NCBI RefSeq assembly: GCF_036588685.1
Contig: NC_086383.1
Coordinates: forward strand, 18,910,001 to 18,974,000
DNA from: Mytilus trossulus
Lineage: Eukaryota
Direction: 5' to 3'
Length of the DNA: 64,000 nt
Position numbers and translations under genes: made by a program. The notes under the pieces were generated by a model that did no database searches, was not told where the DNA came from, and was given only the letters and a program-made list of their open reading frames with translations. Below are positions 2,136-61,752 of this stretch, one piece after another (the first letter of the stretch is position 1; every line of letters begins with the position of its first letter).

Positions 2136-2578
2136 TATACAGCTTATGGCTATTCCTGGCTGACCCAAGAATCTGTCTCTCATGAACTATTGGTATCATA
2201 CAACTATCACTTTTCTATTGTGGTGTCAGATGTTTTGTATTATGACTTCAAAACTTTACGGGAACCACTGTGATGTCCACAAATAGTGATAAGGTGTATA
2301 TTGGTAATTGTAATAAGTTCTGTAAAGTCAGAAATTATTTCATGCATTTATTGATTAAGATATTGTCATTTCAAAATAAAGTGTGATTCCATAGTGGACT
2401 ATACATTATGGGCTTTTCTCATTGTTGAAGGCTGTACAGTAACCTATTAATATTATTGTTAATTTCTGTCCATTTTGGTCTCTTTTGAAGAGTTGTTTCA
2501 TTGGCAATCATACCAGATCTTCTTTTTTTTATACTGTCAGACCTCATAATTATTTCGACTATGTTTACCCTATTCCCG

Positions 2579-2678
2579 TAGTCCAAATAATTATGACGTC
2601 TTGAAAGGCTATTATATTTTTTTTCCTTGACAACAAAAAATATAATAGCCTTTCAAGATGTCATAATTATTTGGACTA
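2579..2678. mobile_element. TAG...CTA foldback MITE (Academ-like)
   Basis: TAGTCCAAATAATTATGAC... arms about 43 bp; TGTTTACCC on both sides (2562-2570, 2679-2687). Confidence 0.7.
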
Positions 2679-2862
2679 TGTTTACCCATATAATTTATAA
2701 TTACATGTTCATTGTTGTTTTTAATTTTGCATAGTATAATCTGACTATAAGGAAACGACCATTTGATATTCTGTCACAGGAGGAGGCACGATTAATTTTG
2801 GAATATGTATTTTGTGATTCCTGATTGTTTTATTTTTTAGTTGTTTAAAAAGATAGTTGTAA

Positions 2863-3254
2863 TTATTACATTGGTTGCAATAAATTACATTGATTTCCCA
2901 GTTAAATAAAAACCGATAATTTCACATGTGAATTAAATGTGGTTATTTCACTCTCTGACGTCATACAACAATAGGCGTTGTCAGGACGTCGATAACGTCG
3001 GATCAAAACAAATTGTGAATGCGTAGTAAAAACATATAGTTCCTTACATTTTCTACATTAATTTCATAAAAAAAACCATTAGCCAATGTAATAAAAAGTA
3101 TAACTAATCGCCGTATTGGAATATAAAAAATAAGACAACTTGTGACCGAACGCCGCTATGGATTAAACTCGTGCTACGCACTTGTTTAATCCATGCGTCG
3201 TTCGGTCACGCGTTGTCTTATTTTTTATATTCAAATACGGCGATTAGTTATACT
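2863..3254. mobile_element. Palindrome-ended non-autonomous element (Crypton-like, tentative)
   Basis: TTATTACATTGG / CCAATGTAATAA inverted pair (2863, 3083-3094) followed by a long hairpin 3097-3254. Confidence 0.5.
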
Positions 3255-7610: not shown

Positions 7611-8052
7611 CTTTAACTATTTTGATTTCAAAATTTACATTTTAGTGTCAGCATAACAAAAAAAATTAGTCATCTCTGTGTAAACAATTTATTAAACATA
7701 GTTCTGACACACTTAGAAAAATTAAGACATTTTTCAGAAATTCTGAATTTGTCTGAATCATACTCTTACTGATACATACAGATTTTTAATTCGTCTTACA
7801 TTCTTGGATATATTTCTGACAATTTCAGAACAATTCAGACACTTTCAGAAGTTCTTAATTTGTCTGAATAAAATTCTTAATGATTCAGAAATATTCAGCA
7901 AAAATTCAGAATTGTCAGTATCAATTCAGAATAGAAATATCAGGATTCAGAAAAATTCAGACATCATTTATCATGTAAGAAAATTTCAGAAATAATTCAG
8001 ACATTTTCAGACACATTCAGACAATATTCAGAAAAAAAAAATCATGAGGGAA

Positions 8053-8547
8053 GGGTCTTCATTATAAAGGGGGGTTCTACAGTATGGAAAACACTTCATG
8101 AAAATGACACGAGGGTCTTCATTATAAAGGGGGGATCTACAGCATGAAAAACACTTCATGAAAATGACACGAGGGTCTTCATTATAAAGGGGGGAGTCTA
8201 CAGTATGGAAAACACTTCATGAAAATGACACGAGGGTCTTCATTATAAAGGGGGGAGTCTACAGTATGGAAAACACTTCATGAAAATGAAACGAGGGTCT
8301 TCATTATAAAGGGGGGATCTACAGCATGGAGAACACTTCATGAAAATGACACGAGGGTCTTCATTATAAAGGGGGGAGTCTACAGTATAGAAAACACTTC
8401 ATGAAAATGAAACGAGGGTCTTCATTATAAAGGGGGGAGTCTACAGCATGGAAAACACTTCATGAAAATGACACGAGGGTCTTCATTATAAAGGGGGGAG
8501 TCTTCAGTATGGAAAACACTTCATGAAAATGACATGAGAGTCTTCAT
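8053..8547. repeat. Minisatellite, 60-61 bp, about 8 copies
   Basis: GAGGGTCTTCATTATAAAGGGGGGAGTCTACAGTATGGAAAACACTTCATGAAAATGACAC. Confidence 0.95.
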
Positions 8548-10180: not shown

Positions 10181-13100
10181 TTAAGCTTTAAATCAGTTAG
10201 CATTGCCATTTGTGGCTGCAAGTACTTTAATAACAATGTCTACAAAACTGTCACAAGAGAAGTACAGAAGAGACATCAATCTTATAAAATAATACTAACT
10301 TAGTCCATTCATTATTTGATGGATTCAATTGTCATGGATTTAATGAGTGTTGACCATTTTGAGGTCCAAGCAAGTATAAATTGTCAATACACTTTGTCGG
10401 ATGATTTACTGTTGTTTTGAACATTGCATCTGATGAAAAAATATTTTTTAAATTACCTATTTGATAAATTTTAGGTACATGCATTTATAACTTATCCACT
10501 TAATTTACATAATTTACATGTATGCAGAACTTGAATACATTTCAAATACATGAAATATTCACTTAAATGCAATTTTCCCCCTTTCCAAATACATGTTTCC
10601 CCTTCAAAGGGCGACTGAGTCTGTCTGACTTGGCAGTAGTTAAAGTATATAAGACTCATATTAAACACATTTGTGCAAAGACTTAGTACTTTTATGTTGT
10701 TCAGTTTAATGTGTGATATGAAACAGGATTAGGGGGATTATCTCTCGCAGCAGACAATAAGAGGATTAAACTGCAATGGATTACTCAAGATTTAATTTCC
10801 GACACAAAATCTTATTTTTATCTTTTACAAAAGCTCTCTTTAATTTTCAATATAAATACTGTAAATTCTGTAAATTCATTATTTTTATGATGGTTTTACT
10901 GAAGTGTAAAATGAGACAAGATGTATTTCGCCTCTTCTGTAGAGCAAACTTTTGATATTGTTATAGCTATACGCCCAGAAATTGTATTCATTAATCTCAG
11001 ATTTTTCCTTTTTTTTCACAAATTTTAACAAATCTGATTTACAAATGCATGTAATGATTTTTTATATAAATACAAAAGTCATTGTTAGTTTTATCATTTG
11101 GATTGTCTTCCATTGTGCTTTCGGGGCCTTTAATTGAATCATCCCACTATGCGGTTTAGGCTTTGCATTATTGTTGAAGGCCTTAATTACAGAGTGACCT
11201 ATAATTGTTAATTTGTTAGTAGTTGTCTTATTGGCAATCATACCAAATCTTCTTCTTAAATACATGTACATCACTAAAAGTCAAATCCGTACAGTGTCAG
11301 AATTTTGGAAAAGCTGCATACAGAAATACTGTATCAGATATCAGAATGCGGCTTATTATTGCATAATACAGGCAGGCCCGTAGCAAGGAATTTCCATGGG
11401 GGGGTTCATTGGACTCACAAACTCGACTTTAACAGTCACAATTCGAACAGAACATTGACTTTGACAGTGCTTATTTGTTTTCAAGGTTGCTGGTTATGGG
11501 TATAAAACGCATTAATAAAAACCTCTCAATAATTTATAAATTTACAGAAATAGTCTCAACTAACTATATTATAAAAGGAGATACATATTTACACAATGGG
11601 GTGCTGCAACCTAAACCCACAGCAAAAAAAACAACATAAAGAGATCATCGACATCATCAAATATTTCTATTCAAACTTTTAGATCTAATTCATAATGATT
11701 ATATAACTATATTTATATCTGAAAATTGACTAAATTACTCTCCTAATTACTGCATTCAAATTATTAACATTAAAGATGAAGTACATGTTAAAATTATATA
11801 CTCTTTTCCAAAAACTCATTAGGAATTTATTGACTTTTGTCTAACACAAAAATTGATTTAAAAAAATGTTTTAATATTTTTCTCAAGGTCGTTAATTTAA
11901 AACTTAATTGTCAACTGAGAATTTTAACTGAACAATTATCGTTTTTTTTTAAAATTATGTTCCCAAATGTTTGAATTATACTACCATAGACAATTAACGT
12001 TTAGAAATAGAAAAAATTTAAAAGTATACATAAAATGGATTTTATATGGCTTTTATAAGTAAACTTATTTGTGCGTTCATGTAAAAAACATTATGCACTA
12101 ACAAATTCATACAATATTCTCTTTGTATATCGACTGAAAATAAAACTTGGTATGAATATTTGTGTAAGGCCTTTAAAATTGAAGGCACAGGTCCGTTAAA
12201 GTCCTTTTTCTTTTCTTATATAAACAAACAATATTATTGTATAATAGTGCAAAAAGCCTTTTACTAAATACAATAGTTCTGGGGTTTTTTCTATCGAATA
12301 TTGTTTATTTTAAGTCTTTTATTATTGACTGGCATTTGAATAAAGTTCAAGTTTAAATTACAAGAACAGTGTTGGTATTTCAGTAACTGTTATATTTTTA
12401 ATATTGCATCTGACAAGAAATTAAACTTTAAATTGACTTTTGTGGTAAATTTCAGATTTCAGGTATATGTATACTCTAACCACTCAAACATGTCTATTCC
12501 ATACCTTAGTAGAGGAAAAAGACTAAAATTAAATATGCTTCAGGTTGAACTTTATAAGCAAGAAATGATCAAATAACTATGTAAGTGTAAACTATTGTAC
12601 ACAAAATGAAATCAAGGCAATACAAGGGGGGGGGGGGGGATCATGCCATTTTAAACAGGGGGGTTCCCAACCCAGGACAAAGGGGGGTTCCAACTTGATG
12701 TCTCCCTTCAAATGCATTGATTGTCCAAAAAAAGGGGGTTCAAACCTTCTGACCCATCCCCCTGGATCCACCACAGTAATACACATACAAAGTGTCAGGA
12801 TCACCTTTATATGGATTGAAGGCATTGTCAATGTATTATAAATTATTTTATATTTATTTCAAATGCACAGCTGATGGTATACAAAAAATAACAAACAAGA
12901 ATACAAAACAAATAGAATGAAATATACAAACACCACCATAACAATGTTTATTTCAGAAACGACTGTTGTGAAATACACCACTGTTTTAGAGTCCATATTC
13001 TTCAGGACTTTGGACTTTTATATAAATGGAGCCACAAACTGCATAAGTTAAGGAACATGTATTATTTTTTTTATATAACACATATTTAAAGCACTGTTAA

Positions 13101-14424: not shown

Positions 14425-14763
14425 ATGCAATTGTATATAAACTAAATTTATATTTTTTCAGTGTCCTCTACTCTAACAGATCATTATAAACTTGAACTCA
14501 TGAAAATGTCTTTCCCAAAGAAAAATATCTCGCGATCATTACAGAATTTCGACTCATGCTTTCTTCAAATGATATAGCCGTTTACTTAATAATGAGAGGA
14601 GGTAGTATGATTCCCAAAGGAAAAGCTAACAAATTGACCACCAGAGTCCAAATAATATTGATGTAAGCAACTAACTACTTCCCTTTAACAGCCTTCAACA
14701 TTGAGCATAACTCATACTCAAACAATTCAAATAAACTTAGAGAACAGCTACTGATATGTACTA

Positions 14764-14932
14764 TGATTCCTTTCACGGATTTGGCTACACTTTTTGGACC
14801 TTTTGGATTATAGCTCTTCATCTTTTATATAAGCTTTGGATTTCAAATATTTTGGCCACGAGCATCACTGAAGAGACATGTATTGTCGAAATGCACATCT
14901 GGTGCAAGAAAATTGGTACCGTTAATTTTATT
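14764..14932 (+). mobile_element. Retrozyme/Penelope-like repeat fragment, family 1
   Basis: Near-identical to the reverse complement of about 45599-45767; carries a hammerhead. Confidence 0.8.
14862..14905 (+). ncRNA. Type I hammerhead ribozyme (minimal, family 1)
   Basis: GCATCA-CTGAAGA-GACA(TGTAT)TGTC-GAAA-T(GCAC)A-TC-TGGTGC: stem I, CUGANGA core, 4-bp stem II, GAAA, short stem III, AUC cleavage triplet. Confidence 0.9.
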
Positions 14933-15777
14933 GTAATTCTTTTGAGATTTATATAATCTTATTCATTCACTGACTTCATATAACGTGTTTTCATGAATGT
15001 CGGACAGAGAATAAATATTATAATGAAAACAGAAATCTCAATAGAAACAGTTATAGTCCTATAAAACAGTGCAAAACTTTCATACAAGCCAAGGAAAGGG
15101 TAATTGAACTCACACCTAAAAGTACAAAATGCATAATTGTTAAATTTGCAGAAACTTTTTTTTCTTTTCTAAAGGGTAAGGAAAATTATACAACAAAGAT
15201 AATTGTGTAATGCCATTATTCAATATTAATATGATGAACACACAAAAGCTGCTTTTTTTAATACCCCAATGAAACCTTGTTTTCCATAAAAAAGATCTTT
15301 TATATATTTACATATGCCCTGTAAGTGCCCCAGTGAAATTGACTCATAAACTATTTCTAAATGCCATAAAACCTGCAGGTTTCCACTTTATTTACATCAC
15401 AGCAGGGATCCAGTTGACAAATGGTGACCTATAATCTCAATGGAGTTATTCATATACTATATTATATAACTCCTGCAGTTAATGTGTAAATAAAATCCAC
15501 TTATGCTTTCACTTTGAAGTCTCAAGATAAGAAAATTTATAGAAATGTGTTAGGAATAAGATAGTCGAAACATATTCATCTAATGTAAAAAGAAGTCATT
15601 AGAAAGTGTTTTTTTAAATTTTTTTTTATCAATTTTCATTTTTAAATATCTGAGTCTTCTTGTGTGGTTACCAGACACCAGCTCTCAAAACAGTGCATTT
15701 AACAAAATCAAAGGACAGGGACCCAGGTCATTTATTGACTTGTACAGTCCAATTTTTCTATTTTAATCTTAACCTGA

Positions 15778-17012
15778 CAGACTTCTATCATGAGAAACTG
15801 ACTTCTATCATGAGAAACAGACTTCTATCATGAGAAACAGATTTCTATCATGAGAAACAGACTTCTATCATAAGAAACAGATTTCTATCATGAGAAACAG
15901 AATTCTATCATCAGAAACAGACTTCTATCATGAAAAACAGACTTCTATCATGAGAAACAGACTTCTATCATGAGAAACTATCATGAGAAACAGACTTCTA
16001 TCATGAGAAACAGACTTCTATCATGAGAAACAGACTTCTATCATGAGAAACAGACTTCTATCATGAATAACAGATCATGAGAAACAGACTTCTATCATGA
16101 GAAACAGATCATGAGAAACACACTTCTATTATGAGAAACAGATCATGAAACACAGACTTTTATCATGAGAAACAGATTTCTATCATGAGAAACAGAATTC
16201 TATCATGAGAAACAGACTTCTATCATGAGAAACAGATTTCTATCATGAGAAACAGACTTCTATCATGAGAAACAGATCATGAGGAACACACTTTTATTAT
16301 GAGAAACAGATCATGAAACACAGACTTTTATCATGAGAAACAGATTTCTATCATGAGAAACAGAATTCTATCATGAGAAACAGACTTCTATCATGAGAAA
16401 CAGACTTCTATCATGAGAAACAGATCATGAGGAACACACTTTTATTATGAGAAACAGATCATGAAACACAGACTTTTATCATGAGAAACAGATTTCTATC
16501 ATGAGAAACAGAATTCTATCATGAGAAACAGACTTCTATCATGAGAAACAGACTTCTATCATGAGAAACAGATTTCTATCATGAGAAACAGACTTCTATC
16601 ATGAGAAACAGATCATGAGAAACAGACTTCTATCATGAGAAACAGATTTCTATCATGAGAAACAGACTTCTATCATGAGAAACAGATCATGAGAAACACA
16701 CTTCTATTATGAGAAACAGATCATGAAACACAGACTTTTATCATGAGAAACAGATTTCTATCATGAGAAACAGAATTCTATCATGAGAAACAGACTTCTA
16801 TCATGAGAAACAGACTTCTATCATGAGAAACAGATTTCTATCATCAGAAACAGACTTCTATCATGAGAAACAGACTTCTATCATGAGAAACAGACTTCTA
16901 TCATGAAAAACAGATCATGAGAAGCAGACTTCTATCATGAGAAACAGATTTCTATCATGAGAAACAGAATTCTATCATGAGAAACAGACTTCTATCATGA
17001 GAAACTGAATTC
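15778..17012. repeat. 20-bp minisatellite with higher-order structure
   Basis: CAGACTTCTATCATGAGAAA units with 14-bp CAGATCATGAGAAA variants. Confidence 0.97.
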
Positions 17013-17416
17013 TCATCGACTTCAAAGTTGTCCTTTTCTATTCAACTGAAATATATCACTGGTCTGCAGTTGAGTTTAAGAAACTTCAACAAACTCATTT
17101 CAAGTACTGTTAGAAAATTAGCATTTATTGAGCAGCTTCAAACCGTGAGACTTGGTAAAAAGACGTCTTTGTGAATATCATTTCAAATCATGAGAAAATA
17201 AAGCAAGCAATACATAATGTGATAATCAGAAATCAACAAAACCTCAGTTACATATTTTTACAACAAAAACTATTACATTGCATAATATAATGTCTCTTAG
17301 TATTATATAATAATGAATCCAAACTTTAAACTAGCTGGACTTTTGAAATGACACATCTCTATGACTTTCCCTTTTTCTTTTAATTCCAGGATTACTGAGA
17401 TCAAATTGATTTTATA

Positions 17417-20583: not shown

Positions 20584-21296
20584 ACGTTTTGGTATGTCTG
20601 AAATTCTCTTTCTGGTAAGTAATGATATCTCATAAAATTTGATAAGAATCGTAACCTTTTAATTTTTGCAATTCACCCACATTGCATAATCCTGTGAGAA
20701 ACAAATGCAGTTAAACATTCTAATGCCACACTGTCATATTTATAGTAGGTAATTAATCTTATATTATCTGTGCAGTTCTATTGGCTAAAATATGTCACAT
20801 GATGTAGTAAGAAACTTTCAAAGCAGTGGCAGATCCAGGATGAGGGTTCCAGCCTGGACCCCCCCTTTTTTTAGACAATCAATGCATTTGAATGTGGACA
20901 TATAGTTGGACCTCCCCCCCCCCTTTTTAGCCTGGGTTGGGAAATCTTCCTTTTGAAAATGGCTGGATCCATCATCCTAATTGGATGCATTGAAACAACC
21001 AGTTGAAGCCAGAGTACCAGTAAAAAAATGTATATGCCAGTAAAATTTTTATGTACATCTGAGCTTCACAAGCAATATAAGTTTAAGGATTATACAAAGA
21101 AAGACAGATTTTAAGGCTTATGTAAGTAAACACGTGTGTAAGAGACGTTCTGTTACATATTAAAACTAGAAGTACTAAATTACTGCACTTCAGGCATAAA
21201 TGTTATGTCATTTGCACATTCCATTCTTAGATTAAAAATAGCATGTCAAACATTAGCAGGTACATTTTTAATAGGAATACACTACCGTGTTGTAAG

Positions 21297-22785
21297 CAAA
21301 ATGACCTACTATGGAATCATACCTGCCAACTGTCACTATTTGAGGGGTATTTCCACCATGGAAGCTCCAAAATGACCTACTATGGAATCGTACCTGCCAA
21401 CTGTCACTATTTGAGGGGTATTTCCACCACGGAAGCTCCAAAATGACCTACTATGGAATCGTACCTGCCAACTGTCACTATTTGAGGGGTATTTCCACCA
21501 CGGAAGCTCCAAAATGACCTACTATGGAATCATACCTGCCAACTCTCACTATTTAAGGGGTGTTTCCACCATGGAAGCTCCAAAATGACCTACTATCAAA
21601 TTGTACCTGCCAACTGTCACTATTTGAGGGGTATTTCCACCACGGAAGCTCCAAAATGACCTACTATGGAATCGTACCTGCCAACTGTCACTATTTGAGG
21701 GGTATTTCCACCACGGAAGCTCCAAAATGACCTACTATGGAATCATACCTGCCAACTCTCACTATTTGAGGGGTATTTTCACCATGGAAGCTCCAAAATG
21801 ACCTACTATGGAATCATACCTGCCAACTCTCCCTATTTAAGGGGTTTCCACCACAGAAGCTCCAAAATGACCTACTATGGAATCATACCTGCCAACTGTC
21901 ACTATTTAAGGGGTTTCCATCATGGAAGCTCCAAAATTACCTACTATGGAATCATACCTGCCAACTGTCACTATTTAAGGGGTATTTCCACCATGGAAAC
22001 TCCAAAATGACCTACTACGGAATCATACCTGCCAACTGTCACTATTTAAGGGGTTTCCACCACAGAAGCTCCAAAATGACCTACTATGGAATCATACCTG
22101 CCAACTGTCACTATTTAAGGGGTATTTCCACCATGGAAGCTCCAAAACGACCTACTATGGAATCATACCTGCCAACAGTCACTATTTAAGGGGTTTCCAC
22201 CATGGAAGCTCCAAAATGACCTACTATGGAATCATTCCTGCCAACTGTCACTATTTGAGGGGTATTTCCACCATGGAAGCTCCAAAACGACCTACTATGG
22301 AATCATACCTGCCAACTGTCACTATTTAAGGGGTTTCCACCATGGAAGCTCCAAAATGACCTACTATGGAATCATTTCTGCCAACTGTCACTATTTGAGG
22401 GGTATTTCCACCATGGAAGCTCCAAAATGACCTACTATGGAATCATTCCTGCCAACTGTCACTATTTGAGGGGTATTTCCACCATGGAAGCTCCAAAATG
22501 ACCTACTATGGAAACATTCCTGCCAACTGTCACTATTTGAGGGGTATTTCCACCATGGAAGCTCCAAAATGACCTACTATGGAATCATTCCTGCCAACTG
22601 TCACTATTTGAGGGGTATTTCCACCATGGAAGCTCCAAAATGACCTACTATGGAATCATTCCTGCCAACTGTCACTTTTTGAGGGGTATTTCCACCATGG
22701 AAGCTCCAAAATGACCTACTATGGAATCATTCCTGCCAACTGTCACTATTTGAGGGGTATTTCCACCATGGAAACTCCAAAATGG
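21297..22785. repeat. 69/71-bp minisatellite, about 21 copies
   Basis: CAAAATGACCTACTATGGAATCATACCTGCCAACTGTCACTATTTGAGGGGTATTTCCACCATGGAAGCTC; unit starts at 21297, 21368, 21439. Confidence 0.97.
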
Positions 22786-26467: not shown

Positions 26468-26862
26468 AAGTGTTTTTAATATTGAGCAAGCTCAAGGGCA
26501 ATCTTAAAGCCACTTTAGTGCTATTTCAAAGTGGTCTATTTTTATGGGGGGGGGGAGCTGGAGCAGTGGCAGATCATGGGGGGTTCCAAGGGTTGGAACC
26601 CCCCCTTTTTTTTACAATCAATGTATTTGAATGGGGACATATAGTTGGAACCCCTCCTTTGTCCTGGGTTGGGAACCCTCTTGTTTAAAGTGGCTGGATC
26701 CGCCCCTGTGAAGTGCCCAGAGAAAACCTACAACCTTCTATAGGAAAGCTGACAATCCTAGTCAATTAAGATAAGAGTCAGGTGAATCCGCATGAGCAGG
26801 GTTCGAACTCAAAACCTCTGAGCGTTGACTGGAGTAGATCTACTTGGTCATCGAGGCCCCTC
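26468..26862 (-). mobile_element. V-type SINE interrupted by CAG-MITE
   Basis: Reverse-complement similarity to 33048-33259 (GGGTTCGAACTC, GACAATCCTAGTCAAT, GAGGCCCC); MITE at 26564-26708. Confidence 0.75.
26564..26708 (+). mobile_element. CAG-MITE, TSD TGGAG/TGAAG
   Basis: Same core; inserted into a SINE. Confidence 0.8.
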
Positions 26863-30500: not shown

Positions 30501-31983
30501 CTGAATTGTTCATGACTTACAATCAATCATTCTAAATAGTAAGTTATTTTGTGAAACCAACTTCAGGTATCCAAATCAAGCATGAATTTACAGTATATAT
30601 ACAGCTGTTGTTCAAAGCTTATACAGTGGTGGATCCAGGGGGAGAGTTCAGGGAGTTGGACCCCCCCCCCCCCCTTTTTTTAACGATCTATGCATTTGAA
30701 TTGGGACATAGGGTTGGAACCCCACCCTTTAATCCTGTGTTCTTCAACATGATGATTTATTTTTTGACATTTTTCAGTGTTGATTTTGTTATTATAGCTT
30801 TTGTGTGTGTGTTTTTTTTTAAGGGGGAGGGGGTCTCGGTTTATCTCTCCCTTCTTTACCTTGACAATTACTCAATGTGATCCAGATTAGCAATCAATCA
30901 ATCACATCAAATGTCATTATCTAGATACATTGATGTTTGCCTTGTTCTTTGGAGGTTTTTTTTAAAAGGGGGGTGTTCTATTGACTTCTTCTACCCAATG
31001 TCTCATGATTATTCTTATGTAATCTTTAGCATAATAATAATTTTGTCAAGTTTATGCTAACTACGAGTTTTTGAAATTCTGTACATTTATATTTTCTTGG
31101 GCATATTATACATAACCAGTGCCTGAGAATATGAAGTACTTCAAACAACTGCTGCCAGCTCTGACAAGACACAGATATATGCCCATTAAGATAAGAATAT
31201 ATGCAATCCAATGATAAGATACAATTACTTAGAATTCCAATGACTTAATGCAATGTCAAGATTGAGTGACAGACCAAGGCTCACAGTTAATAAACAAGTA
31301 AAGGCCATCTCAAAGTTTTCTCAACAAATATATGGGACATCAATCTCAAAGCGTTTTTCTGAGTCATTAAATATTGTTAATGTATAACAGAAATTAAAAG
31401 AAGAAAAAGTGGATGCTGACCCGTGAATTTGTTTATTTTCCTGGGTATTTAATTTGTGGATTGAAAAAAAATTGTACAATTTGGTAAATATTTTCATGTG
31501 TTTGCCAAAGTATGCATACTTCAGTTGATAGAAAATGAGTACATCATTAATTTTTTTAATGTGGTTAACCTGTACCAAATAAAATCCACAAAAATGTATA
31601 TTCTGAATAGGAAGAATAATCAATCCATAGAAGCTAAAAAATTACTTATTTGAAAATTGTTTTCTTGCAGAAAATTAAATTGATAACATATATATATTTA
31701 CTATTGTCTTATGTAAAAGAAAAACAAGCCTTATCTTACTAGCATTATCAAGTGTATAAACTTTCATACTATCAACTCTACAGGGTAAAATGTTATTAGC
31801 GGAAATAACAATATCATCTTACAAATTACTAAAACATTTAAAGCAATCAACTTTGGGACATTCAAGATATTCTGCAACTGAAAACATCAGGTAACCAGAT
31901 AAAGATGTTCATCATTATCTTTTAAGAACAGATTCGGCAGATAAGACATTTCAAGTTACAGTGATGGAATAAAATCACTAAAA

Positions 31984-34289: not shown

Positions 34290-35630
34290 TTGTTGTACTA
34301 TCGTTTTACTTTTTACTCATTTTGTAACATGCCCTCTGTCAACAAATATCTTTTTAACTTGACAACAACATAGTAGTACATTAATTATACAATTCATGGC
34401 ATTATTTGCGTATTGCTATCATTTTACTTTTACAGTAAATTGCCATTATTTAGCATGCCCCTTTGATAAATATCATTTCAACTTGACAACAATATATTTG
34501 TACATTAATTATACAATTCATGGCATTAACTGCGTTTTGCTATCATTTTACTTTTACTCATTCTTTAAGCTTGCCCCCTTTGACAAATATCATTTTATCT
34601 TGAGAACGACATGAGTATCACAATTATACAATTCATGGCATTATCTGCGTTTTGCTATCATTTTACTTTTACTCATTCTTTTAGCTTGCCCCCTTTGACA
34701 AATATCATTTTAACTTGACAAGGACATAATTAAGTATAACAATTATAAGATTCATGGCATTATCTGCGTTTTCCTATCATTTTACTTTTACTCATTCTTT
34801 TAGCTTGCCCCTTTGACAAATATCTTTTTAACTTGACAGCAACATATAAGTATCAACATAATACGACTCATGGCATTATCTGCATTTTGCTATCATTTTA
34901 CTTTTACTCATTCTTTTAGCTTGCCCCTTAGACAAATATCTTTTTAACTTGACAACAACATCAGTATCACAATTATAAGATTCATGGCATTAACTGCGTT
35001 TTGCTATCATTTTACTTTTACTCATTCTTTTAGCTTGCCCCCTTTGACAAATATCATTTTAACTTGACAAGGACATAATTAAGTATAACAATTATAAGAT
35101 TCATGGCATTATCTGCGTTTTCCTATCATTTTACTTTTACTCATTCTTTTAGCTTGCCCCTTTGACAAATATCTTTTTAACTTGACAGCAACATATAAGT
35201 ATCAACATAATACGACTCATGGCATTATCTGCATTTTGCTATCATTTTACTTTTACTCATTCTTTTAGCTTGCCCCTTAGACAAATATCTTTTTAACTTG
35301 ACAACAACATCAGTATCACAATTATAAGATTCATGGCATTAACTGCGTTTTGCTATCATTTTACTTTTACTCATTCTTTTAGCTTGCCCCTTAGACAAAT
35401 ATCTTTTTAACTTGACAGCAACATATAAGTATCAACATAATACGACTCATGGCATTATCTGCATTTTGCTATCATTTTACTTTTACTCATTCTTTTAGCA
35501 TGTCCCCTTCGACAAATATCATTTTAACTTGACAGCTATAATTTTACTTTTACTCATTCTTTTAGCATGCCCCCTTTGACAAATATCATTTTAACTTGAC
35601 AACGACATATGAGTATCAACATTACACAAT
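34290..35630. repeat. About 116-bp satellite with 349-bp higher-order repeat
   Basis: TCATGGCATT...CTATCATTTTACTTTTACTCATTC...GACAAATATC; diagnostic variants recur 349 bp apart. Confidence 0.95.
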
Positions 35631-38125: not shown

Positions 38126-38271
38126 TTTTAGTCCTCAATGCTCTTCGACTTCGTACTTTATTTGGCCTTTTTAACATTTTTGGATTCGAGCGTCACTGAT
38201 GAGTCTTTTGTAGACGAAACACGCGTCTGGCGTATACTAAATTTAGTCCTGGTATCTATGATGAGTTTATT
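38126..38271 (+). mobile_element. Retrozyme/Penelope-like repeat fragment, family 2
   Basis: Hammerhead with upstream context (GCTCTTC ... TTTTGG...CGAGC) resembling family 1; boundaries approximate. Confidence 0.7.
38190..38233 (+). ncRNA. Type I hammerhead ribozyme (minimal, family 2)
   Basis: GCGTCA-CTGATGA-GTCT(TTTGT)AGAC-GAAA-C(ACGC)G-TC-TGGCGT: complete core with GUC cleavage triplet (cut after 38227). Confidence 0.92.
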
Positions 38272-42868: not shown

Positions 42869-45600
42869 CTACAAATTTTTGTAATAAACATCATACTACA
42901 TTATACAAATGAAACAAATGTGTATGGTCAGGGAAAGAGCCATACCTGAACACATATAATGACAGCTTACCTGTAAAAATAATAATCCTAAAGTATTGAC
43001 CACAGGTATACAAAAAATGTGGCTGGTCAGTTAATAAATCCAAGGAATTATATTACACAATAATTCCACAAGTTGCCATGTTGTGTCATAAATCAGCACA
43101 CTACAGTGTAACCTGGCATTGACCAAGGAGAACTGTGGTCAATGAACTGACCTGACCATTGATGACCAACAAGCTGGACAAGCCAGGTTCAATCACCCTA
43201 CAAACCACATGTTGGTCAGTTAAACTGTGAATCTATGTCAGTTCCACAGGTGAAATTGATCTAATTAAATTCTTATCTATCCAAGATTAGTGTATTGCAG
43301 TTAATTCCCAAGTGTGTATTGGTCAGCCAGACACCCTCTGGTCATCAGTCAATCTTAAAGACAATGTTCAGTTTGTACAACAATTTCACACATAACACTG
43401 GTCATTCAGGTATGAAGTCATGTGACTTTACATAACACAGGTCTGACTGGACAACAATCATTATTTATTCCCTGAGGGTCAATAATACACCTGACTAGTC
43501 CTTAAATGATTTAAATCTAATACACAAACACTGGACATTCATATTGGCTAAAATATTCTTTGAAGTAGCGTTTTAAGCCTTTCTAGTGTAAACTATATAC
43601 AATAGATTGAGTAGAATGGAAGTCTAGGCAATTTCAAATTGTTAAATGTTATTTTATCAAATGTATACAGCCCTTTTTAAATAATCTCTTTCTAAAAACG
43701 TATTTTAAACGTAGGGACACGACCATATCCCAAGGATTGGCTTTAATGTTATTTTATCATTCTTTTAACAGTAAACATCCATTTGTTTATTTACAAAATA
43801 AATCCTCTGATAAAAATTTTAGACAGCCCTGAAATTGACATACATGTAAATCATGTTTTTTGTTTAATGTATTAATTCAGAAACTCATTTTTTAACCTTT
43901 CATATGAATTAAACTGATTTTTTCTCAATGTCACAAAAATTAAAATCTCATTTTAGTCTAAAATGACAAATTGCAATAATAAAAGCACGCAATAATGTCT
44001 GAATTCACAGTACCTCTTTTTTTTTATCCACATTGGGACCTTTTATAGACTTTTTTGTCCAGCCACTATGTAAACAAGCTGATGAATCATGTACTTTTCA
44101 GGCCAGACATAAACTGACAACAAAATGTTCATCAATTGCATTGTTTCAGTCTTCCAATTGACCATATACCAAAGACAATAAATTCCAGCTTATAATTTTT
44201 AACCTGGGCATTCATGGTTGGCCATTTTCCCCACCCACTGATTTTTTCTCATTTTTTTAAAAATGAAAATAAAATAAATTCTTTAGGGATTATATCAAGA
44301 ATACAACAGTTGTTTTCCATTCATTTCATTGGTTGATAAAATCTAACGATTCGATTTTGTAAATTTTTTGTAGACCTGCACTAATTAAGTAAGGTCAGTT
44401 TTGCCACTTATTTTTTGGGGGGATCTATCTTTATCCTGTAAATGCCGAATTATAGACACCTGTTGTTATTAAACTGAAGTTTTTGGCTTGGCCTAAAATG
44501 TGTATTGATCACAAGATGGACAATGTCCAGACAATTTCTCATTAATTGATAATAATCAAACATCTGTTGTACTTACTATTTCATTAATAAACAAGATCTG
44601 GTGTATTGTAAGTTTATGTGTCCAATCAAAAGTTAGGTTTATTATTCCATACATCAAAAGACATTAGTTTAAAAATGAAATTAAAAAATAAAAAATATAT
44701 AAAAAAAACATGATTCTAAAAAATAAGTTCTTCCAATTTCTCAGAGTGAATTTCATGAAGATTAAACCTTCCAAAGATATTAAAAACAAAATTTGTAGGA
44801 AAAACAAACAACGATGGTGTACTTACCAGTGGCAGATCCAGAACTTTTCCTAATGGGGGCCTACTGTCTGGGGAGGGGGGCGGCTCCCCTAGGGCCCTCC
44901 TCAAGATCCGCCTATGCTCACAGTGGATTCATTTATTTTTTAGGGTACTAAAATTTTTGTGGATTTATGAAAACTTGCAATAAGCGGGTATTTGATTTCA
45001 GGGTTTTGCCAAAGTCTGAATACTCCATTAAATTTGTCACTTGTTGAACATTCATAAATAAGGGGTTCACGAAACACATGAAAAGCTGGTATCCAACAAA
45101 AAAATAATGAATCCAAAGTATTGAAAAATTTTGTTGATCCTATAAGAATCAAGTTGTTAATGAAGAAAACTCTAAAAGTGTTTGCTGAATCATCAAAACA
45201 ACAAAATACATCACAATAAAAGCTGGAAAATGAGAAAAAAAGGTAAATTGAATGTGTAAATACATTAGAACTTACAAAAGCAATCCACAGTATCTTCTGA
45301 GAGACACTGCTGAGAAAGAATTTGTAACTTAAGAATCAATTTCATATCTCAATACAACAGCCTGTATGTCAATTAAGACTCTAATTTACTTTCATCCTCA
45401 GCAATATTTACAAGCAAAACATGCCATCCTTTAATTATTCAAAGTGAATATGATTTAAGATAGAATTCACAGGAACTAGGAATTGAGTGATTGTTGGTGT
45501 GTGTTTTAATGCCACTTTTAAGCGGCACTTTCTCAGGCTATTTTGTGGCAGTAAGTTTTTATGGGTGGAGGAAGTGGGAGTGCCTGGAGAAAACTACCAA

Positions 45601-45908
45601 TAAAATTAACGGTACCAATTTTCTTGCACCAGAGGCGCATTTCGACAATACATGTCTCTTCAGTGATGCTCATGGCCAAAATGTTTGAAATCCAAAGCTT
45701 ATATAAAATATGAAGAGCTATAATCCAAAAGGTCCAAAAAGTATAGCCAAATCCGTGAAAGGAATCAGAGCTTTGCATGAGGGAGATACATTCCTTAATT
45801 TATAATAATTTATAATATTTTGTAACAGCAAATTTTAATAACACAAAAAATCCGTATTTTCATGCCAGTACCGAAGTACTGGCTACTGGGCTGGTGATAC
45901 CCTCGGGG
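45601..45908 (-). mobile_element. Retrozyme/Penelope-like repeat, family 1, inserted into a V-type SINE
   Basis: Hammerhead plus UUCG hairpin; flanked by ACCAA direct repeats (45596-45600, 45909-45913); the SINE is contiguous once it is removed. Confidence 0.8.
45626..45669 (-). ncRNA. Type I hammerhead ribozyme (family 1, stem III mismatch)
   Basis: Minus strand GCATCA-CTGAAGA-GACA(TGTAT)TGTC-GAAA-T(GCGC)C-TC-TGGTGC; core intact, U.C mismatch in stem III, CUC triplet. Confidence 0.85.
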
Positions 45909-46133
45909 ACCAACCTTTGATAGGAAAACAAACAATCCTAGTTAAGTGCACTTGCACGAGCAGAGTTTGAAATCCCATCCTCAGTGTTTGCCGACTAGTG
46001 ACAGGAGCAAGGAAAACAGTCTGCTCAATTCTTTGCAGAAGTTAACAAATGTTTCATAAATTTCTTGATCCAGTTGCTCAAAAACAATTTTGGAAAGACG
46101 ACTATATAGGTTTAAGCAAACATATAACAAAAT

Positions 46134-46285
46134 CAGTGGCAGATCCAGAGGGGGGTTCCAGGGATTGGACCCCCCTTTTTTTTTGGCCGATCAATGCATT
46201 TGAATGGGGACATGTAGTTCGTTGGAACCCCCCTTTTATTTTGGGTTGAGAACGCCCCTTTTTAAAATGGCTGGATCTGCCCCTG
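46134..46285 (+). mobile_element. CAG-MITE (CAGTGGCAGATCCAG TIR), 5-bp TSD AAAAT
   Basis: TIR and exact TSD; internal ATCAATGCATTTGAATGGGGACAT core. Confidence 0.85.
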
Positions 46286-46754
46286 AAAATTGTCTGAAAA
46301 ATCTGAGCTAGTCAACTTTATTTGCCCGAGAAAAGTACGAATATACTAAAAGACATTAAAAGCAAAGTGCAGACTTAAAGTCATTGTAAATGGCAAGAGA
46401 ACAATGTTGTAGTCTAATCAGGATTAATGTTAAAATGTCAATGAATTCTGTTGACACAGACATGTGTCTCGCCTGTTTTTATAGGACACACAAGTTGAAA
46501 TTCAAATGGCAATGCTAATGTTTACCATTAAACACTTTCAAGGTCATTCAACCATGGCTCATAGGGGGCACTGAGGCCAAATTATCACCACAAAAATGAG
46601 ATGTGTTAACTCTTTATTACCTGTGAGCCAAATATCATTGATTAACACTTGGTGAGCTCATTGGATGTTTCCAACATCGCTGCATAAACTCATGACATTT
46701 GAATCTTGCCTTCACAACTTTATGTGGTATAATAGACAAGACAAAATTTACACA

Positions 46755-48303: not shown

Positions 48304-48442
48304 TAGTGGCAGATACAGGGAGAGGGTTCCAACCCCACTTTTTTCTGACAATCAATGCATTTGAATGGGGACATATAGTTTGAACCCACCTTTATCCTGG
48401 GTTTAAGGAACCCCCTTTTATAAATCGCTGGATCCACCCCTG
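48304..48442 (+). mobile_element. CAG-MITE, TSD CTTTT
   Basis: Same core, exact 5-bp TSD. Confidence 0.8.
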
Positions 48443-49459
48443 CTTTTGAAATTGAATCCGGAGTATGGTGACCTATTCAATCTGCCCTCATACACCCCAC
48501 ACCTATTTATATTATTTGTAGTTTTAAAAAAATCAGCTAATGGGAAATTTATTCACAAATGAAACATCTTGCAATAAACCTTTTCCCTCTCTATTTATAT
48601 CATTTTAATATTCTATCTTTTTCATTCACTTTGTTAGAACGTCTTTATGCCATTTTCAAAGGACAGGATAAAAACACAATTTCACAACACTGCTTTAGGT
48701 ATTGAATTTTTAAATGAACTTTAAATTACAGAGTATATATTCTCCAAGATGACACCTTACACATTTAAAGTACTTCAACTCTGACACAACTAGTGCCGGA
48801 AGGCATTTTATCCCTTCAATACAATCATACTGTATATAATGGATTATTGTCCGATGAAAATATTTATTTTAAATTGTGAAATCATTTGAAGCAATGTATG
48901 GCATTTGAGTCAGACAAAAAACATGCCTTTTTTGTGAGTGTTTAAAAAACCAACCTCAAAATATTAAATAAAATCAGTCATATTTTAATGTGCCTGAATT
49001 TTACTTTGTTTAAAACCTATTTTAATTTGTTCTTAAAAAATCTAATTTTCTGTAGCCATTCACTTTTATGTACTGTTGGGATTATGTGTTACTTATTGGG
49101 TATACTTATATATTTTAATATTTCGTGGGTTAAACAGGTGAATCTGTTAGTAACTTATAATTATTCATCAAATTACAATTTTCTTCCACTAATCCGTTTT
49201 AATAATTTGACAAAACTTACTATATAAAAGTAAAGACAACTTTTAGAGTTTGAACCTTACTGATGCCTGAGGCATTTATATAGTGAATATTTTTTTGAAT
49301 GACTAAAATTTTTGCTAGATGTCAACAGTTACACCACAAAAATTTTGAAACCACGGATACATGAAGATATCTCTCGGCAAAATAACTTGGTAAGAAAAAT
49401 AGTATGAACATAATACCTCCAACTAACACTGTGACTGTATTAGTACTATTTTATTTATT

Positions 49460-51716: not shown

Positions 51717-53507
51717 AAAGGACAACTGAGGCATTCACATGAGATTTTGTTTTACGTTTTTGATTGCCTATACTGTGTCTTTTCTCTGCCTCTATTTTGC
51801 TAATATTTTAAATAATTTTAACTAGTACTATGCCCTTGAAAACATGATATACAGCATTTTTTCAACTTCTAAATTTGTGTACTTCCAAAACAATAGAATA
51901 AAAGAAAGATTTAATTAACATCAATTTCTGAATACAACTTTGAGACTGGATCCCTGTATATTATTTTCTGCCCACTGATACTCCTTTTTGAAATTAAATT
52001 CTCGTCACCTGATATAAAATATATATAAAATATATCAGGATCCCTCTTTAATGAGGCTTTAATAGCTTCTTCGGAGAATTATATATAATTACAAGATATA
52101 CAAGAGATTTTACAAATTGAAAAACATCAAATCATACTAAGAAAACCAATCCTATATTTTACACTATAGCTACATCCCTGCGCTAGTCAACTGGCGAGTC
52201 AATTAACTATCGACAATTTGTTTGCATGTAAATCCATGAAACATTACCAGTCTCTCAGCTGCTACTAAGGAACATAGAAATTGTGCAATCAAATAATTAT
52301 TGATTTGTAGAAATCTGAAGAGAAGAATCGGATTTCTGGTGAAAACAAGACAGTTTTATGTTATGTCAGAATTATGGCATTATTATGTACAAATTTTGTC
52401 ATCAAATTCTCTGCTTCTCAGGAAATTTCTTGTCAAATTTACTTTGGGTATGCAAGATTTTCATTTGTCATCAAGCTGATGATTTTCCAAATTAAGACAA
52501 CAACAATCTTTATATTTCTTTTGAACATCCTTGAATCTTTCTTCATATATCAATGATTTTCTTTTGATGATAATATAATGAGGCTGTAAAACACTAATCT
52601 GAATGCAACACTGTTTTGGAACTTTTTTTTTATTGGATTATAAATACCAAAATTTTAGGGCATTAATTCCACAACTGCTTTTATTTTAAATGATATTGTT
52701 TGATTTTCCATATAAGAGTTGGCTACGTTTTTCATAGCATGCTATTTTCGCTTCATTCTTCAATCAAAATTTGTTTAAGAGACTGGCAAAATATACCAAC
52801 TTGAATATCTATTTTACACATATAAGTCGAAAACAAACTGACAATGCCATGGCAAAAAAACAAAAAACAACAAACAATTGGTAAACAAAACACGACATCG
52901 AAAACAGTTCTAGACAGAGAAACATGAACCCCTAAAAAATCTGATGATGATCTCCAGAGCTCTGAAGGGTAAGCAGATCCTGCTCCACTTAGTATTACCT
53001 GTCATATTGCTCATGTAAGTACAAACCCTGGAGGGATGATGAGTCTATTTTTTTAGACACCACTCAAGTAAAAGAGGACAACATTGTTAAACTTATATCT
53101 TTATATTTATCAGGGCTGGATCCAGCTATTGGAAAAACAGGGGTGAGGGTGGCGTGGAGGGGGGGGGTTCCCAACCCAGAACAAAAGGGGGGTCCAAATA
53201 TATGTCCCCATTCAAATGTATTGAGCATCCCAAAAAAAGGGGGGTTCCAACCCACAGACCCCCACCCCTCCTGGATCTGCCTGGGTCTTCAACATAGTGA
53301 AAAAATGTTCCACTTTGGAATCTTCAACCTAGTACATGTATATACATGAAAAACTATTTCTGCTAAATTATGGAAACATATTGAGCCAGGGCAGATACCA
53401 AAAGCTGTTGGACTAATCTCATTAAGACATACCAAAGACACAACAAAGAGTTATAGTAGGCTAAAACTGCTTCAATGATGATCAATAATCTATTCTTAAT
53501 ACTCCTT

Positions 53508-53621: not shown

Positions 53622-53868
53622 ACGTCTTCCTTGTATATGACATTAAACAGCAGAATATCTTAGTAACGACAAATTCCAGGAGAAGTTTGTAAAATTGTAA
53701 AAAATGTATGTATGTAAAAAAAAAAATATCTTTCATTTTCAATACAGCAAAAACAATGTTTCGTGAAAGGTAACAATGGGAGGTTAGAGTTAAACACTTT
53801 TTTTTAAAAGTTAACTTTCTGATTTTGAACATGAAAAATTAGACTAAAAAAACTTATAACGAAGGGAT

Positions 53869-54000
53869 CAGGGGAGGATCCAGCTATTTTATAAAGGGGG
53901 TTCCTAACCCAGGTAAAGGGGGGGGGGGGGTTAACCATATGCATTGATCGTCCAAAAAAGGGGGGTTCTAACCCCCCCCCCCCCCTTGGATCTGCCACAG
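53869..54000 (-). mobile_element. CAG-MITE, TSD GGGAT/GGGTT
   Basis: Reverse-oriented core; other reverse copies at about 12637-12776 and 53111-53283. Confidence 0.8.
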
Positions 54001-55192: not shown

Positions 55193-55342
55193 CAGGCGTG
55201 GATCCAGGGGGGGGGGGGTCCGGGGGTTGGAACCCCTTTTTTTGGGGCCGATCACTTCATTTGAATGGGGACATATAGTTGGAACCCCCCCTTTGTCCTG
55301 GGTTAGGAACCCCCCTTTTTAAAATGACTGGATCCGCCCCTG
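55193..55342 (+). mobile_element. CAG-MITE, TSD CCCTT, nested in a related element (about 55085-55378)
   Basis: TIR, exact 5-bp TSD; outer element ends TCTGGATCAGCCACTG. Confidence 0.85.
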
Positions 55343-55660
55343 CCCTTCCCCTGATAAAAATTTCTGGATCAGCCACTGGGGTCATTAGAACTGACATTTC
55401 AAAGGCCAGTTGAGGAAGTGAATTTCTTCAAGTCTTCTAAAATAACCTGCTTATCACAATACAATATACTACAAAAGTTTGTCAATAAAGATCTTTAGAA
55501 ATCACATTCACCTCACCACAGAGTTCATACTCACAACCTCAGAGCGAATATATATATAGTCGTTACTGTAGATAAACTTTTCTGACCACTCTGCCACCAA
55601 AGCTTCTTGGATAAACAAGATGTGAGGTACCCCGAAATAAGATAGAAATCTAAGTATAAC

Positions 55661-56229: not shown

Positions 56230-56985
56230 TGTACTGGTTTTCTCATGTGTCACTTTTTTTATTGTAATGTTACATATATGAAATTGGTTTGGTATGACAT
56301 ATGTACATATTTGTAATGTAACATTTTTGTAATTTTTGTAATGTTACATATATATATGAAAATGTTTGTGTAATGCTACATTTGTAACTGAAGCTGTTTT
56401 AGGTTACTGTTTTTGCAATATGACATGTGTTATTGTTTTGCAATTTAACATGTATAACTTTTTATGCAATATGACATGTGTAACTTGTTTTTGTGATGTT
56501 ACATATGTAACTGTTTTTGTGATGTTACATATGTAACTGTTTTAGTTATATGACATGTGCAACTGTTTTTGTGATGTTACATAGGTAACTGTTTAAATGC
56601 AATATGACATGTGTAACTGTTTTTGTAATGTTACATGTATAATGTAGCTGTTTTTTAAATGTTACAATTGTGGAACTGTTTTTGCAATATAGCATGTGAC
56701 TATTTTAATGCAATATGACATGTGCAATTTTTTTTTTGTATTGTTACATTTATGTAACTGTTATTGTTAAATGACATATGCATGTGTAACTATTATCAGT
56801 GATGTATCCAGGGGGAAGGTTCCAGGGGTTGGAACCCCCTTTTTTTGGACAATCAATAATGCATTCAAATGGGGACATATTTTTGGATCCCCCCCTTTTA
56901 AAAATGGCTGGAGCTGCCCCTGTTTATGTGACTGATTTTGTTATATTACATACATGTGCATGTAACTGTTTTTAAAATATGACAT
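56230..56985. repeat. Degenerate TGTAAC/GTTACA-rich tandem array
   Basis: TGTAACTGTTTTTGTGATGTTACAT-like units. Confidence 0.8.
56797..56922 (+). mobile_element. CAG-MITE, TSD ATTAT/TTTAT
   Basis: Same core; further copies at about 20824-20972 and 30623-30730. Confidence 0.75.
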
Positions 56986-58500: not shown

Positions 58501-58783
58501 AGTTTTGAAACACTTAAGGCCTTGCGGTCATAAAACTTTCTAGTATGATTTTTGTACTAAGACTCGAAAATCAACCAATCAAATTGCTGGATTTCATGTT
58601 TCGAGCATGATATTATGCCTTCAAGGCCTGGCCTTGAAGGCATAAAACTTTGCTCAGTGCTCGGAGCACAAAAATCATGCTTGAAACATGAAATCCAACA
58701 ATTTGATTGGTTGATTTTCGAGTCCGAGTACAAAAATCATGCTAGAAAGTTTTATGACCGCGAGGCCTTAAGTGTTTAAAACT
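58501..58783. repeat. Large palindrome: inverted dimer of a GGCC-ended MITE
   Basis: Units 58518-58628 and 58630-58767 in opposite orientation, joined by one T; flanks also inverted. Confidence 0.85.
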
Positions 58784-61490: not shown

Positions 61491-61625
61491 CAGAGGGAGA
61501 GGGGTTCAGGGGATTGGAACCCCCCTTTTTTTGGACGATCGATGCATTTGAATAGTTGGAACCCCCATGCCACTTTATCCTGGGTTGGGAACCCTCCCTT
61601 TCTAAAATGGCTTGATCACCCCCTG
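61491..61625 (+). mobile_element. CAG-MITE, TSD AACTG/AACTA
   Basis: Same core. Confidence 0.75.
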
Positions 61626-61752
61626 AACTATGAACCATCTAAAACATTCTATAATAAACCTCCTTCAAAGTTTTATGTCTAACAATGTTTTGAGGGTCTC
61701 TCTTACAGCAGATGGTAATAACTAGTTATCTCCCTTTTTGAGTAAATCAAAG

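Follow-up and report, generated by a model that had tools for sequence, protein, structure and literature searches.

Closest Described Systems

Cervera and de la Pena (2020, PMC7229834) described the retrozymes of the mussel M. galloprovincialis as low-GC repeats of 350–390 bp with type I hammerhead ribozymes (HHRs). They reported about 5000 type I motifs, two similar HHR families, and abundant circular RNAs, in some of which the HHR is not predicted to fold. The same work (PMC7229834) deals with a 353-nt construct, Mg353, with ligation by RtcB, and with two co-resident families in both mussel and axolotl. Co-resident hammerhead families have been published for coral too. In axolotl and newt, the families HHR_Amex1 and HHR_Amex2 occur together and share a palindromic tetraloop on helix III; dimeric cleavage was described for them, dimers being required and the contacts between loops 1 and 2 being kept. 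Covariation of the palindrome may, reportedly, already have been noted by Lunse et al.

According to PMC4209133, animal type I motifs usually combine a palindromic loop 3 with cleavage as double hammerheads, and a palindromic helix III/loop 3 in such hammerheads is likewise found in the available portions of PMC3088659 (legend to Fig S8) and PMC6765202. Type I HHRs are also present in the pLTRs of Penelope-like elements (PLEs). In PMC11167929, a Penelope-like reverse transcriptase (RT) is shown to initiate internally, at fixed positions located 3′ of a hammerhead that remains uncut; it requires RNA 3′ of the start, and RNA-seq ends at the cleavage site are absent. A preprint (10.64898/2026.07.22.740005) uses phylogeny to connect frog retrozymes with the pLTRs of PLEs and calls the mechanism open. 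In the consulted part of a 2020 review (PMC7761336), metazoan retrozymes are said to show no conserved motif pointing to a mobilising partner.

Hammerhead Motifs in the Window

The window, i.e., the whole stretch of DNA that was analysed, comprises 64,000 nucleotides of Mytilus trossulus (NC_086383.1, positions 18,910,001 to 18,974,000, forward strand). It is AT-rich (28–37% GC), contains many satellites and dispersed repeats, and has the appearance of animal non-coding DNA. A strict hammerhead pattern occurs at three sites in it versus none in 100 Markov-simulated windows. Motif A (14862–14905, + strand) is a type I hammerhead identified by the strict pattern, by its pairing, and by a model search. 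It consists of stem I (GCATCA, 14862–14867, and TGGTGC, 14900–14905), the core CTGAAGA (14868–14874), stem II (GACA, 14875–14878, and TGTC, 14884–14887, around TGTAT), GAAA (14888–14891), and TGCACA followed by TC, with predicted cleavage after C14899. Motif B, also of type I (45626–45669, − strand), has the same letters except for the segment GAAA TGCGCC TC, and its predicted cleavage is after C45632. Motif C (38190–38233, + strand) represents a sister family and is predicted to be cut after C38227.

A metagenome scan in which only stem I and the flanks were fixed yielded two outside loci, L038 and L039, with three more motifs. In all six copies the core (CUGANGA, GAAA, UH) is invariant and helix I is open-ended, as is characteristic of type I hammerheads. 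Helices I/II/III are of 6/4/2 bp in A and four other copies; helix III is of 1 bp in B. Unlike in HHR_Amex1/2 with their retained loop contacts, helix III here has 2 bp, and loop 2 (UGUAU) is variable in reads. The topology is that of Rfam RF00163 (Hammerhead_1), the consensus line of which is itself palindromic in helix III. None of the window copies reaches its gathering threshold of 34: motif C obtains 28.8 bits (E 0.0057), and neither A nor B is reported at E ≤ 1. With a model built from these copies, only A, B, and C fall below E 1 in the window, matches that follow from its construction.

It had been claimed from the letters alone that the stems covary between A and the sister motif while the core is fixed. 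This proved to be the case, and stem I covaries as well. Between the A type and motif C, stems I, II, and III show four pairs changed on both sides and one wobble, with a constant core. In the covariation test, 95.7% of 70 cells are paired, a value attained by 2 of 500 shuffles and set against at most 46% in slid controls, for two lineages with few independent events.

A further pattern match at 15858–15922 (− strand) was rejected: it lies in a 20-bp satellite, has helices of 3/2/3 bp, and is absent from the model search. Rfam microRNA matches in the window were likewise dismissed, being far under their gathering scores; long near-perfect hairpins at 2594–2664 and 58597–58668, matched by such sub-gathering models, are probably inverted-repeat remnants. 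A bacterial promoter scan of the window gave one hit versus 2.1 expected and is irrelevant here. Tandem arrays are found at 8052–8547 (61 bp ×8), 15777–17013 (20 bp ×65), 21297–22784 (71 bp ×21), and 34298–35534 (116 bp ×11), the 20-bp array beginning about 850 bp downstream of copy A. In addition, a MITE-like dispersed repeat of 110–150 bp is present in about 11 copies, 70–85% alike and in both orientations (12633–12781, 20820–20971, 26562–26708, 30619–30741, 46130–46287, 48305–48443, 53161–53281, 53861–53998, 55198–55348, 56791–56901, and 61493–61627).

Copies and the 350-bp Tandem Unit

Motif A is part of copy A (14761–14932, + strand), a 5′-truncated solo retrozyme copy that covers 172 of 350 bp with 98% identity to the L038 monomer. 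Copy B (45599–45914, − strand), near full-length but also 5′-truncated and solo, covers 316 of 350 bp with 97.5% identity to L038:893–1208; A and B are 96% identical over 173 bp. Copy C (38149–38271, + strand) is a truncated solo copy of the sister family, 66–68% identical to family A over 87–100 bp. L038 contains a head-to-tail tandem with a period of 350 bp, each unit with a type I hammerhead, and no LTR-like arrangement was seen in it. The loci themselves have mixed surroundings. L038:1–691 and 2212–3186 contain bacterial-looking ORFs (168+ aa overlapping a 60-aa ORF; 325+ aa) around AT-rich animal-like DNA with the retrozyme tandem, an arrangement due either to chimeric assembly or to bacterial DNA within the genome of a host. 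At about 900–1330 of L039, about 1 kb downstream of the hammerhead, a broken LINE-type RT fragment with a YADD-like motif was noticed by eye.

RNA reads (runs X22 and X24) and DNA contigs (runs X2 and X9) were placed on one unit, L038:736–1085; 3326 of 8.71 million reads matched in X22 and 4763 of 7.34 million in X24, the reads examined amounting to about 6% of each run. The junction 1085>736 is crossed by 434 (X22) and 454 (X24) RNA reads and by 31 and 30 DNA contigs. The unit is abundant in DNA and transcribed, its copies diverge by about 2–4%, and the best matches to the repeat come from a gill metagenome and two organisms. The earlier assignment to a retrozyme-type repeat is supported by a 350-bp tandem unit in L038 and in the reads. 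The family has the size of non-LTR retrozymes (head-to-tail repeats of 150–450 bp with a type I HHR), the window copies themselves being solo and truncated. The GC content of the unit, 38.6%, is below the 50% given as a retrozyme criterion. A 67-aa frame across the unit, the one candidate in a protein search, had one match.

None of the 113 ORFs scanned among 406 in the window (ORFs of 45 aa or more) has a Pfam match, so they reveal no autonomous partner and no host gene or intron context; an ORF with RT and GIY-YIG is absent from the window ORFs scanned and from L038. No clear target-site duplication was seen in four of four insertions, where matches are of only 4–6 nt and mostly apart from the copy ends; such duplications are optional in non-LTR retrozymes and, if they occur, exceed 4 bp. 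Family-A patterns have no matches in viral contigs or in bacterial/archaeal genomes, and a C-specific pattern has none in viral contigs. A looser C-type core pattern hit 37 viral loci and was dropped, as neither the flanks of these loci nor their longer helix III show any relation to the repeat. Sequence words of the element retrieved only unrelated papers from the paper texts.

Taken as a whole, the site most likely holds a solo copy, truncated at its 5′ end and altered by point mutations, of a 350-bp tandem repeat that is transcribed and bears a type I hammerhead motif. The repeat appears to be a non-autonomous non-LTR retrozyme, predicted to self-cleave, circularise, and re-insert via a Penelope-like RT. 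Family A is probably one of the published mussel families, with which it agrees in unit size. We consider it highly unlikely that the unit is the pLTR of an autonomous PLE and that A, B, and C are ordinary 5′-truncated PLE 3′ ends. PLE traits do include ragged 5′ ends together with a 3′ end that is fixed on the downstream side of a hammerhead (PMC11167929 and PMC8557442), and the available part of the frog preprint (10.64898/2026.07.22.740005) relates retrozymes to pLTRs. However, both L038 and 434/454 reads show head-to-tail closure of the unit at 350 bp, as opposed to an end depth near 630–640. The helices are canonical (6/4/2 bp) and not of the minimal PLE form described in the part of PMC4209133 consulted, and neither RT nor GIY-YIG stands beside the window copies in the ORFs scanned. 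The likeness to pLTR hammerheads, including that of PAc (PMC4209133 and PMC11167929, as far as accessible), extends to a type I HHR that precedes a fixed, internal 3′ end, to 5′ truncation, and to the absence of RNA-seq ends at the cleavage site; the present unit differs in having no ORF, a canonical motif, and head-to-tail closure. No second ‘tail’ end as in PLE pLTRs is seen among the ends listed.

The Helix III Palindrome and Its Probable Decay

The sequence-only reading held that A and B each differ by another single base from the palindrome ATGCGCAT, and this is confirmed. The helix III/loop 3 octamer of A, ATGCACAT (14891–14898, + strand), has one change, G>A at 14895, in a CpG site. The octamer of B, ATGCGCCT (45633–45640, − strand), has one change at 45634 (A>C on the minus strand), by which the second helix III pair is lost. 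The octamer of C, ACACGCGT (38219–38226, + strand), is off a palindrome by the same kind of change as A (G>A at CpG). The palindrome ATGCGCAT itself was seen directly in two of the three outside copies, L038:817–824 and L039, and the third (L038:1138–1181) carries A's variant; four of the six copies inspected thus have a broken palindrome. Among the 40 of 144 read differences listed, the weakest of which are at about 8–10%, none falls on L038 820, 821, 823, or 824. Consequently, the palindrome would be the majority form and the variants of A and B minor ones, in agreement with the claim that stem III of the family is palindromic. C>T and G>A are the most frequent change types in all four runs (X2, X9, X22, and X24).

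The variants A and B look like decay, not design, since both are truncated solo insertions with structure-weakening changes. The proposal of selection on RNA structure therefore seems to apply to an earlier stage, on the source lineages, and not to these two copies. All three hammerheads in the window have a broken palindrome, which exceeds the expectation from about 2% divergence; CpG decay accounts for two of the three motifs, and a further possibility is that active solo ribozymes were selected against when present in host transcripts. A palindromic helix III is a long-known dimer feature, which makes the core claim an ordinary one: together with co-resident families it is already known, and the finding is real but of a known kind. 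What the papers compared do not contain are the fixed end with its hairpin domain, a family with a CCGG loop, and the RNA/DNA imbalance of that family; the main text on mussel retrozymes (PMC7229834), in particular, mentions no third family, no insertions with a constant 3′ end, and no conserved hairpin domain.

A Likely Third Family and Dimer Pairing

The RNA reads show two changes in the loop, L038 819 G>C and 822 C>G, in 244/1084 and 244/982 reads of X22 and in 93/995 and 93/923 reads of X24. The counts of this GCGC>CCGG double change are matched per strand in both runs (21/21, 223/223, 23/23, and 70/70). In X22, foreign flanks of uniform sequence are found in 227 reads at 789 and in 225 reads at 830, and their first letters change the outer stem I pair from G-C to A-U. 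The reads over L038:789–830 likely represent a third hammerhead family with CCGG in loop 3, still an 8-nt palindrome. Of the earlier claim of two co-resident lineages, it holds that the A type and the C type both exist, and the number is likely at least three. The CCGG family makes up 0.09–0.25% of DNA depth versus 9–25% of RNA reads over the motif, figures that come from different DNA and RNA samples and from short unitigs that may undercount the DNA share. It often has A at the cleavage position (167/973 reads in X22), with different flanks.

In the energy model, the CCGG octamer forms an 8-bp self-duplex of −10.9 kcal/mol and the A type (GCGC) pairs with itself at −10.5, but the two with each other at just −1.0. 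For the isolated palindromic motif, the two-strand model gives −27.3 kcal/mol for a double hammerhead versus −15.6 for the two best single folds. The broken copies show no gain: A+A has −17.1 versus −17.8 and B+B −18.5 versus −20.4 kcal/mol for two single folds. An A-type motif with the window C copy has −9.6 versus −9.4, again with no gain, and the A octamer with a palindromic C-type octamer has −8.9, so that A/C heterodimers appear disfavoured in the model. Selection for dimer pairing is compatible with a double change at positions 1 and 4 of the loop, with a closing pair on a 2-nt loop as the alternative. Such a closing pair is known in some tetraloops.

That alternative belongs to a broader and rather unlikely explanation, according to which requirements of the single molecule, namely a compact tetraloop with one more closing pair, maintain the palindrome, while dimerisation has no role in vivo. 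In its favour, a mussel monomer construct cleaves alone at about 0.1 per min, and invertebrate HHRs generally act as monomers (PMC7229834). Nevertheless, the double change preserves the 8-bp self-duplex with matched counts in both RNA runs, and the isolated motif has a better fold than the single hammerhead. Neither fold emerges in longer RNAs: for the circle and the natural tandem, equilibrium folding gives stems I and III a probability of 0.0 in the single and the double form, and folding of the 350-nt circle has a z of −1.5 (37 °C, 40 shuffles).

Transcripts of the Repeat

Assuming the usual stranded library type, 76–77% of the RNA is ribozyme-sense, and expression amounts to roughly 470–580 RPKM summed over all copies. 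Abundant sense RNA crosses the unit junctions, reads of a kind that cannot separate circles from uncut tandem transcripts. Sense reads run past the insertion end in 345/410 and 339/485 cases and antisense reads in 94/196 and 96/193; the higher proportion among sense reads suggests sense RNA in tandem or circular form. RNA ends do not accumulate at the predicted cleavage site in X22 and X24, so that these reads give no sign of cleavage.

One could suppose that the family is a dead satellite-like repeat, its RNA arising by passive transcription through the many copies in the genome and its ribozyme having lost its function. The lack of cut RNA ends would agree with that, as would the 95 and 127 RNA reads that leave into unique flanks at 859, the roughly one quarter of reads that are antisense, and the palindrome broken in four of six copies; in the accessible part of the frog preprint (10.64898/2026.07.22.740005), eight of nine frog dimers are without cleavage. 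This explanation seems very improbable to us, however, as sense reads cross the insertion end more often than antisense reads and the copies are just about 2–4% apart.

A Fixed 3′ End and a Hairpin Domain

Past the predicted cleavage site of motif A, copy A continues for 33 nt (14900–14932, + strand), and position 14932 is the fixed 3′ insertion end of the family. All four terminal family-A copies (A, B, that of L039, and the last copy in L038) end at +33; their 5′ ends vary, that of L039 being set by the contig start. DNA contigs leave the unit at L038 858/859 (158+197 in X2, 106 in X9), and their flank agreement of 0.4 indicates many different flanks. Copy C apparently extends to 44 nt beyond its predicted cleavage site, which puts its end at roughly the same position with respect to the hairpin domain, as judged from one copy and a loose-end consensus with 0.54 agreement (X9, 19 contigs).

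Seven bases beyond the fixed end there begins a GC-rich domain, L038:862–948 (57% GC), which is predicted to form two hairpins, one long and one of the C(UUCG)G kind. In copy B, the latter is at 45865–45882 (− strand), with compensatory differences in reads, and the 3′ half of the long hairpin, which precedes it, is at 45883–45914 (− strand). Folding of L038:860–948 has a z of −3.9, with none of 200 shuffles as good. Among the 15 differences listed in 861–942, ten are on paired positions, all of which keep the pairing, and five are unpaired. The compensatory pairs among them are 892/896, 925/942, 929/938, and 928/939, with a wobble at 918, their phase being deduced from similar frequencies in unphased reads. 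Sister-family reads share the domain, entering at 862 and exiting at 947/948. Those that enter at 862 (679 and 1393) outnumber the family A reads there.

The GC-rich hairpin domain beside the fixed end may be a candidate start signal for Penelope-type reverse transcription. From this start, a linear monomer cut by the ribozyme would offer no more than 33 nt of template, and insertions would hence need a ligated circle or an uncut multimer. No description of a fixed end or hairpin of this kind was found in the literature searched, with most subscription papers and supplements outside its reach.

Proposed Mechanism and Its Significance

The following sequence of events would account for the copies. 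Tandem source arrays would be read through into RNA. Adjacent hammerheads would then pair their palindromes in an 8-bp helix III, as a double hammerhead, or take the single fold with a 2-bp helix, and cut after UC. The monomers would be circularised by a host RtcB-type ligase, as the mussel retrozyme literature suggests. A Penelope-type RT/endonuclease may bind the hairpin domain, begin cDNA internally about 33 nt past the cleavage site, and copy back across an intact (ligated or uncut) hammerhead, often stopping early. An internal start with an early stop would leave one fixed 3′ end and ragged 5′ ends, as in A, B, and C. Solo copies would afterwards decay, CpG first, the dimer advantage having presumably disappeared in both A and B, and in B a helix III pair as well.

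Combined, these observations allow a tentative joint reading, which we regard as possible and still more doubtful than not. In it, the hairpin domain of ~80 nt would be the recruitment and start signal of a Penelope-type RT, setting the 3′ end of insertions 6–8 nt upstream of itself irrespective of how far away the ribozyme lies (33 nt for family A and 44 nt for copy C) and thereby forcing a circular or uncut template. At least three co-resident families would each retain a helix III palindrome of their own, of the GCGC, the CCGG, or the C type, and these would act as a code of self-recognition when double hammerheads cleave, the family rarest in DNA being strongly over-represented in RNA.

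The GCGC/CCGG swap is a natural compensatory change and makes the question of monomer versus dimer testable in an invertebrate. The covarying hairpin beside a fixed insertion end is a concrete cis-element, testable with purified Penelope-type protein. If this hairpin is the start signal, it would provide a mechanistic link between retrozyme circles and the internal initiation of PLEs.
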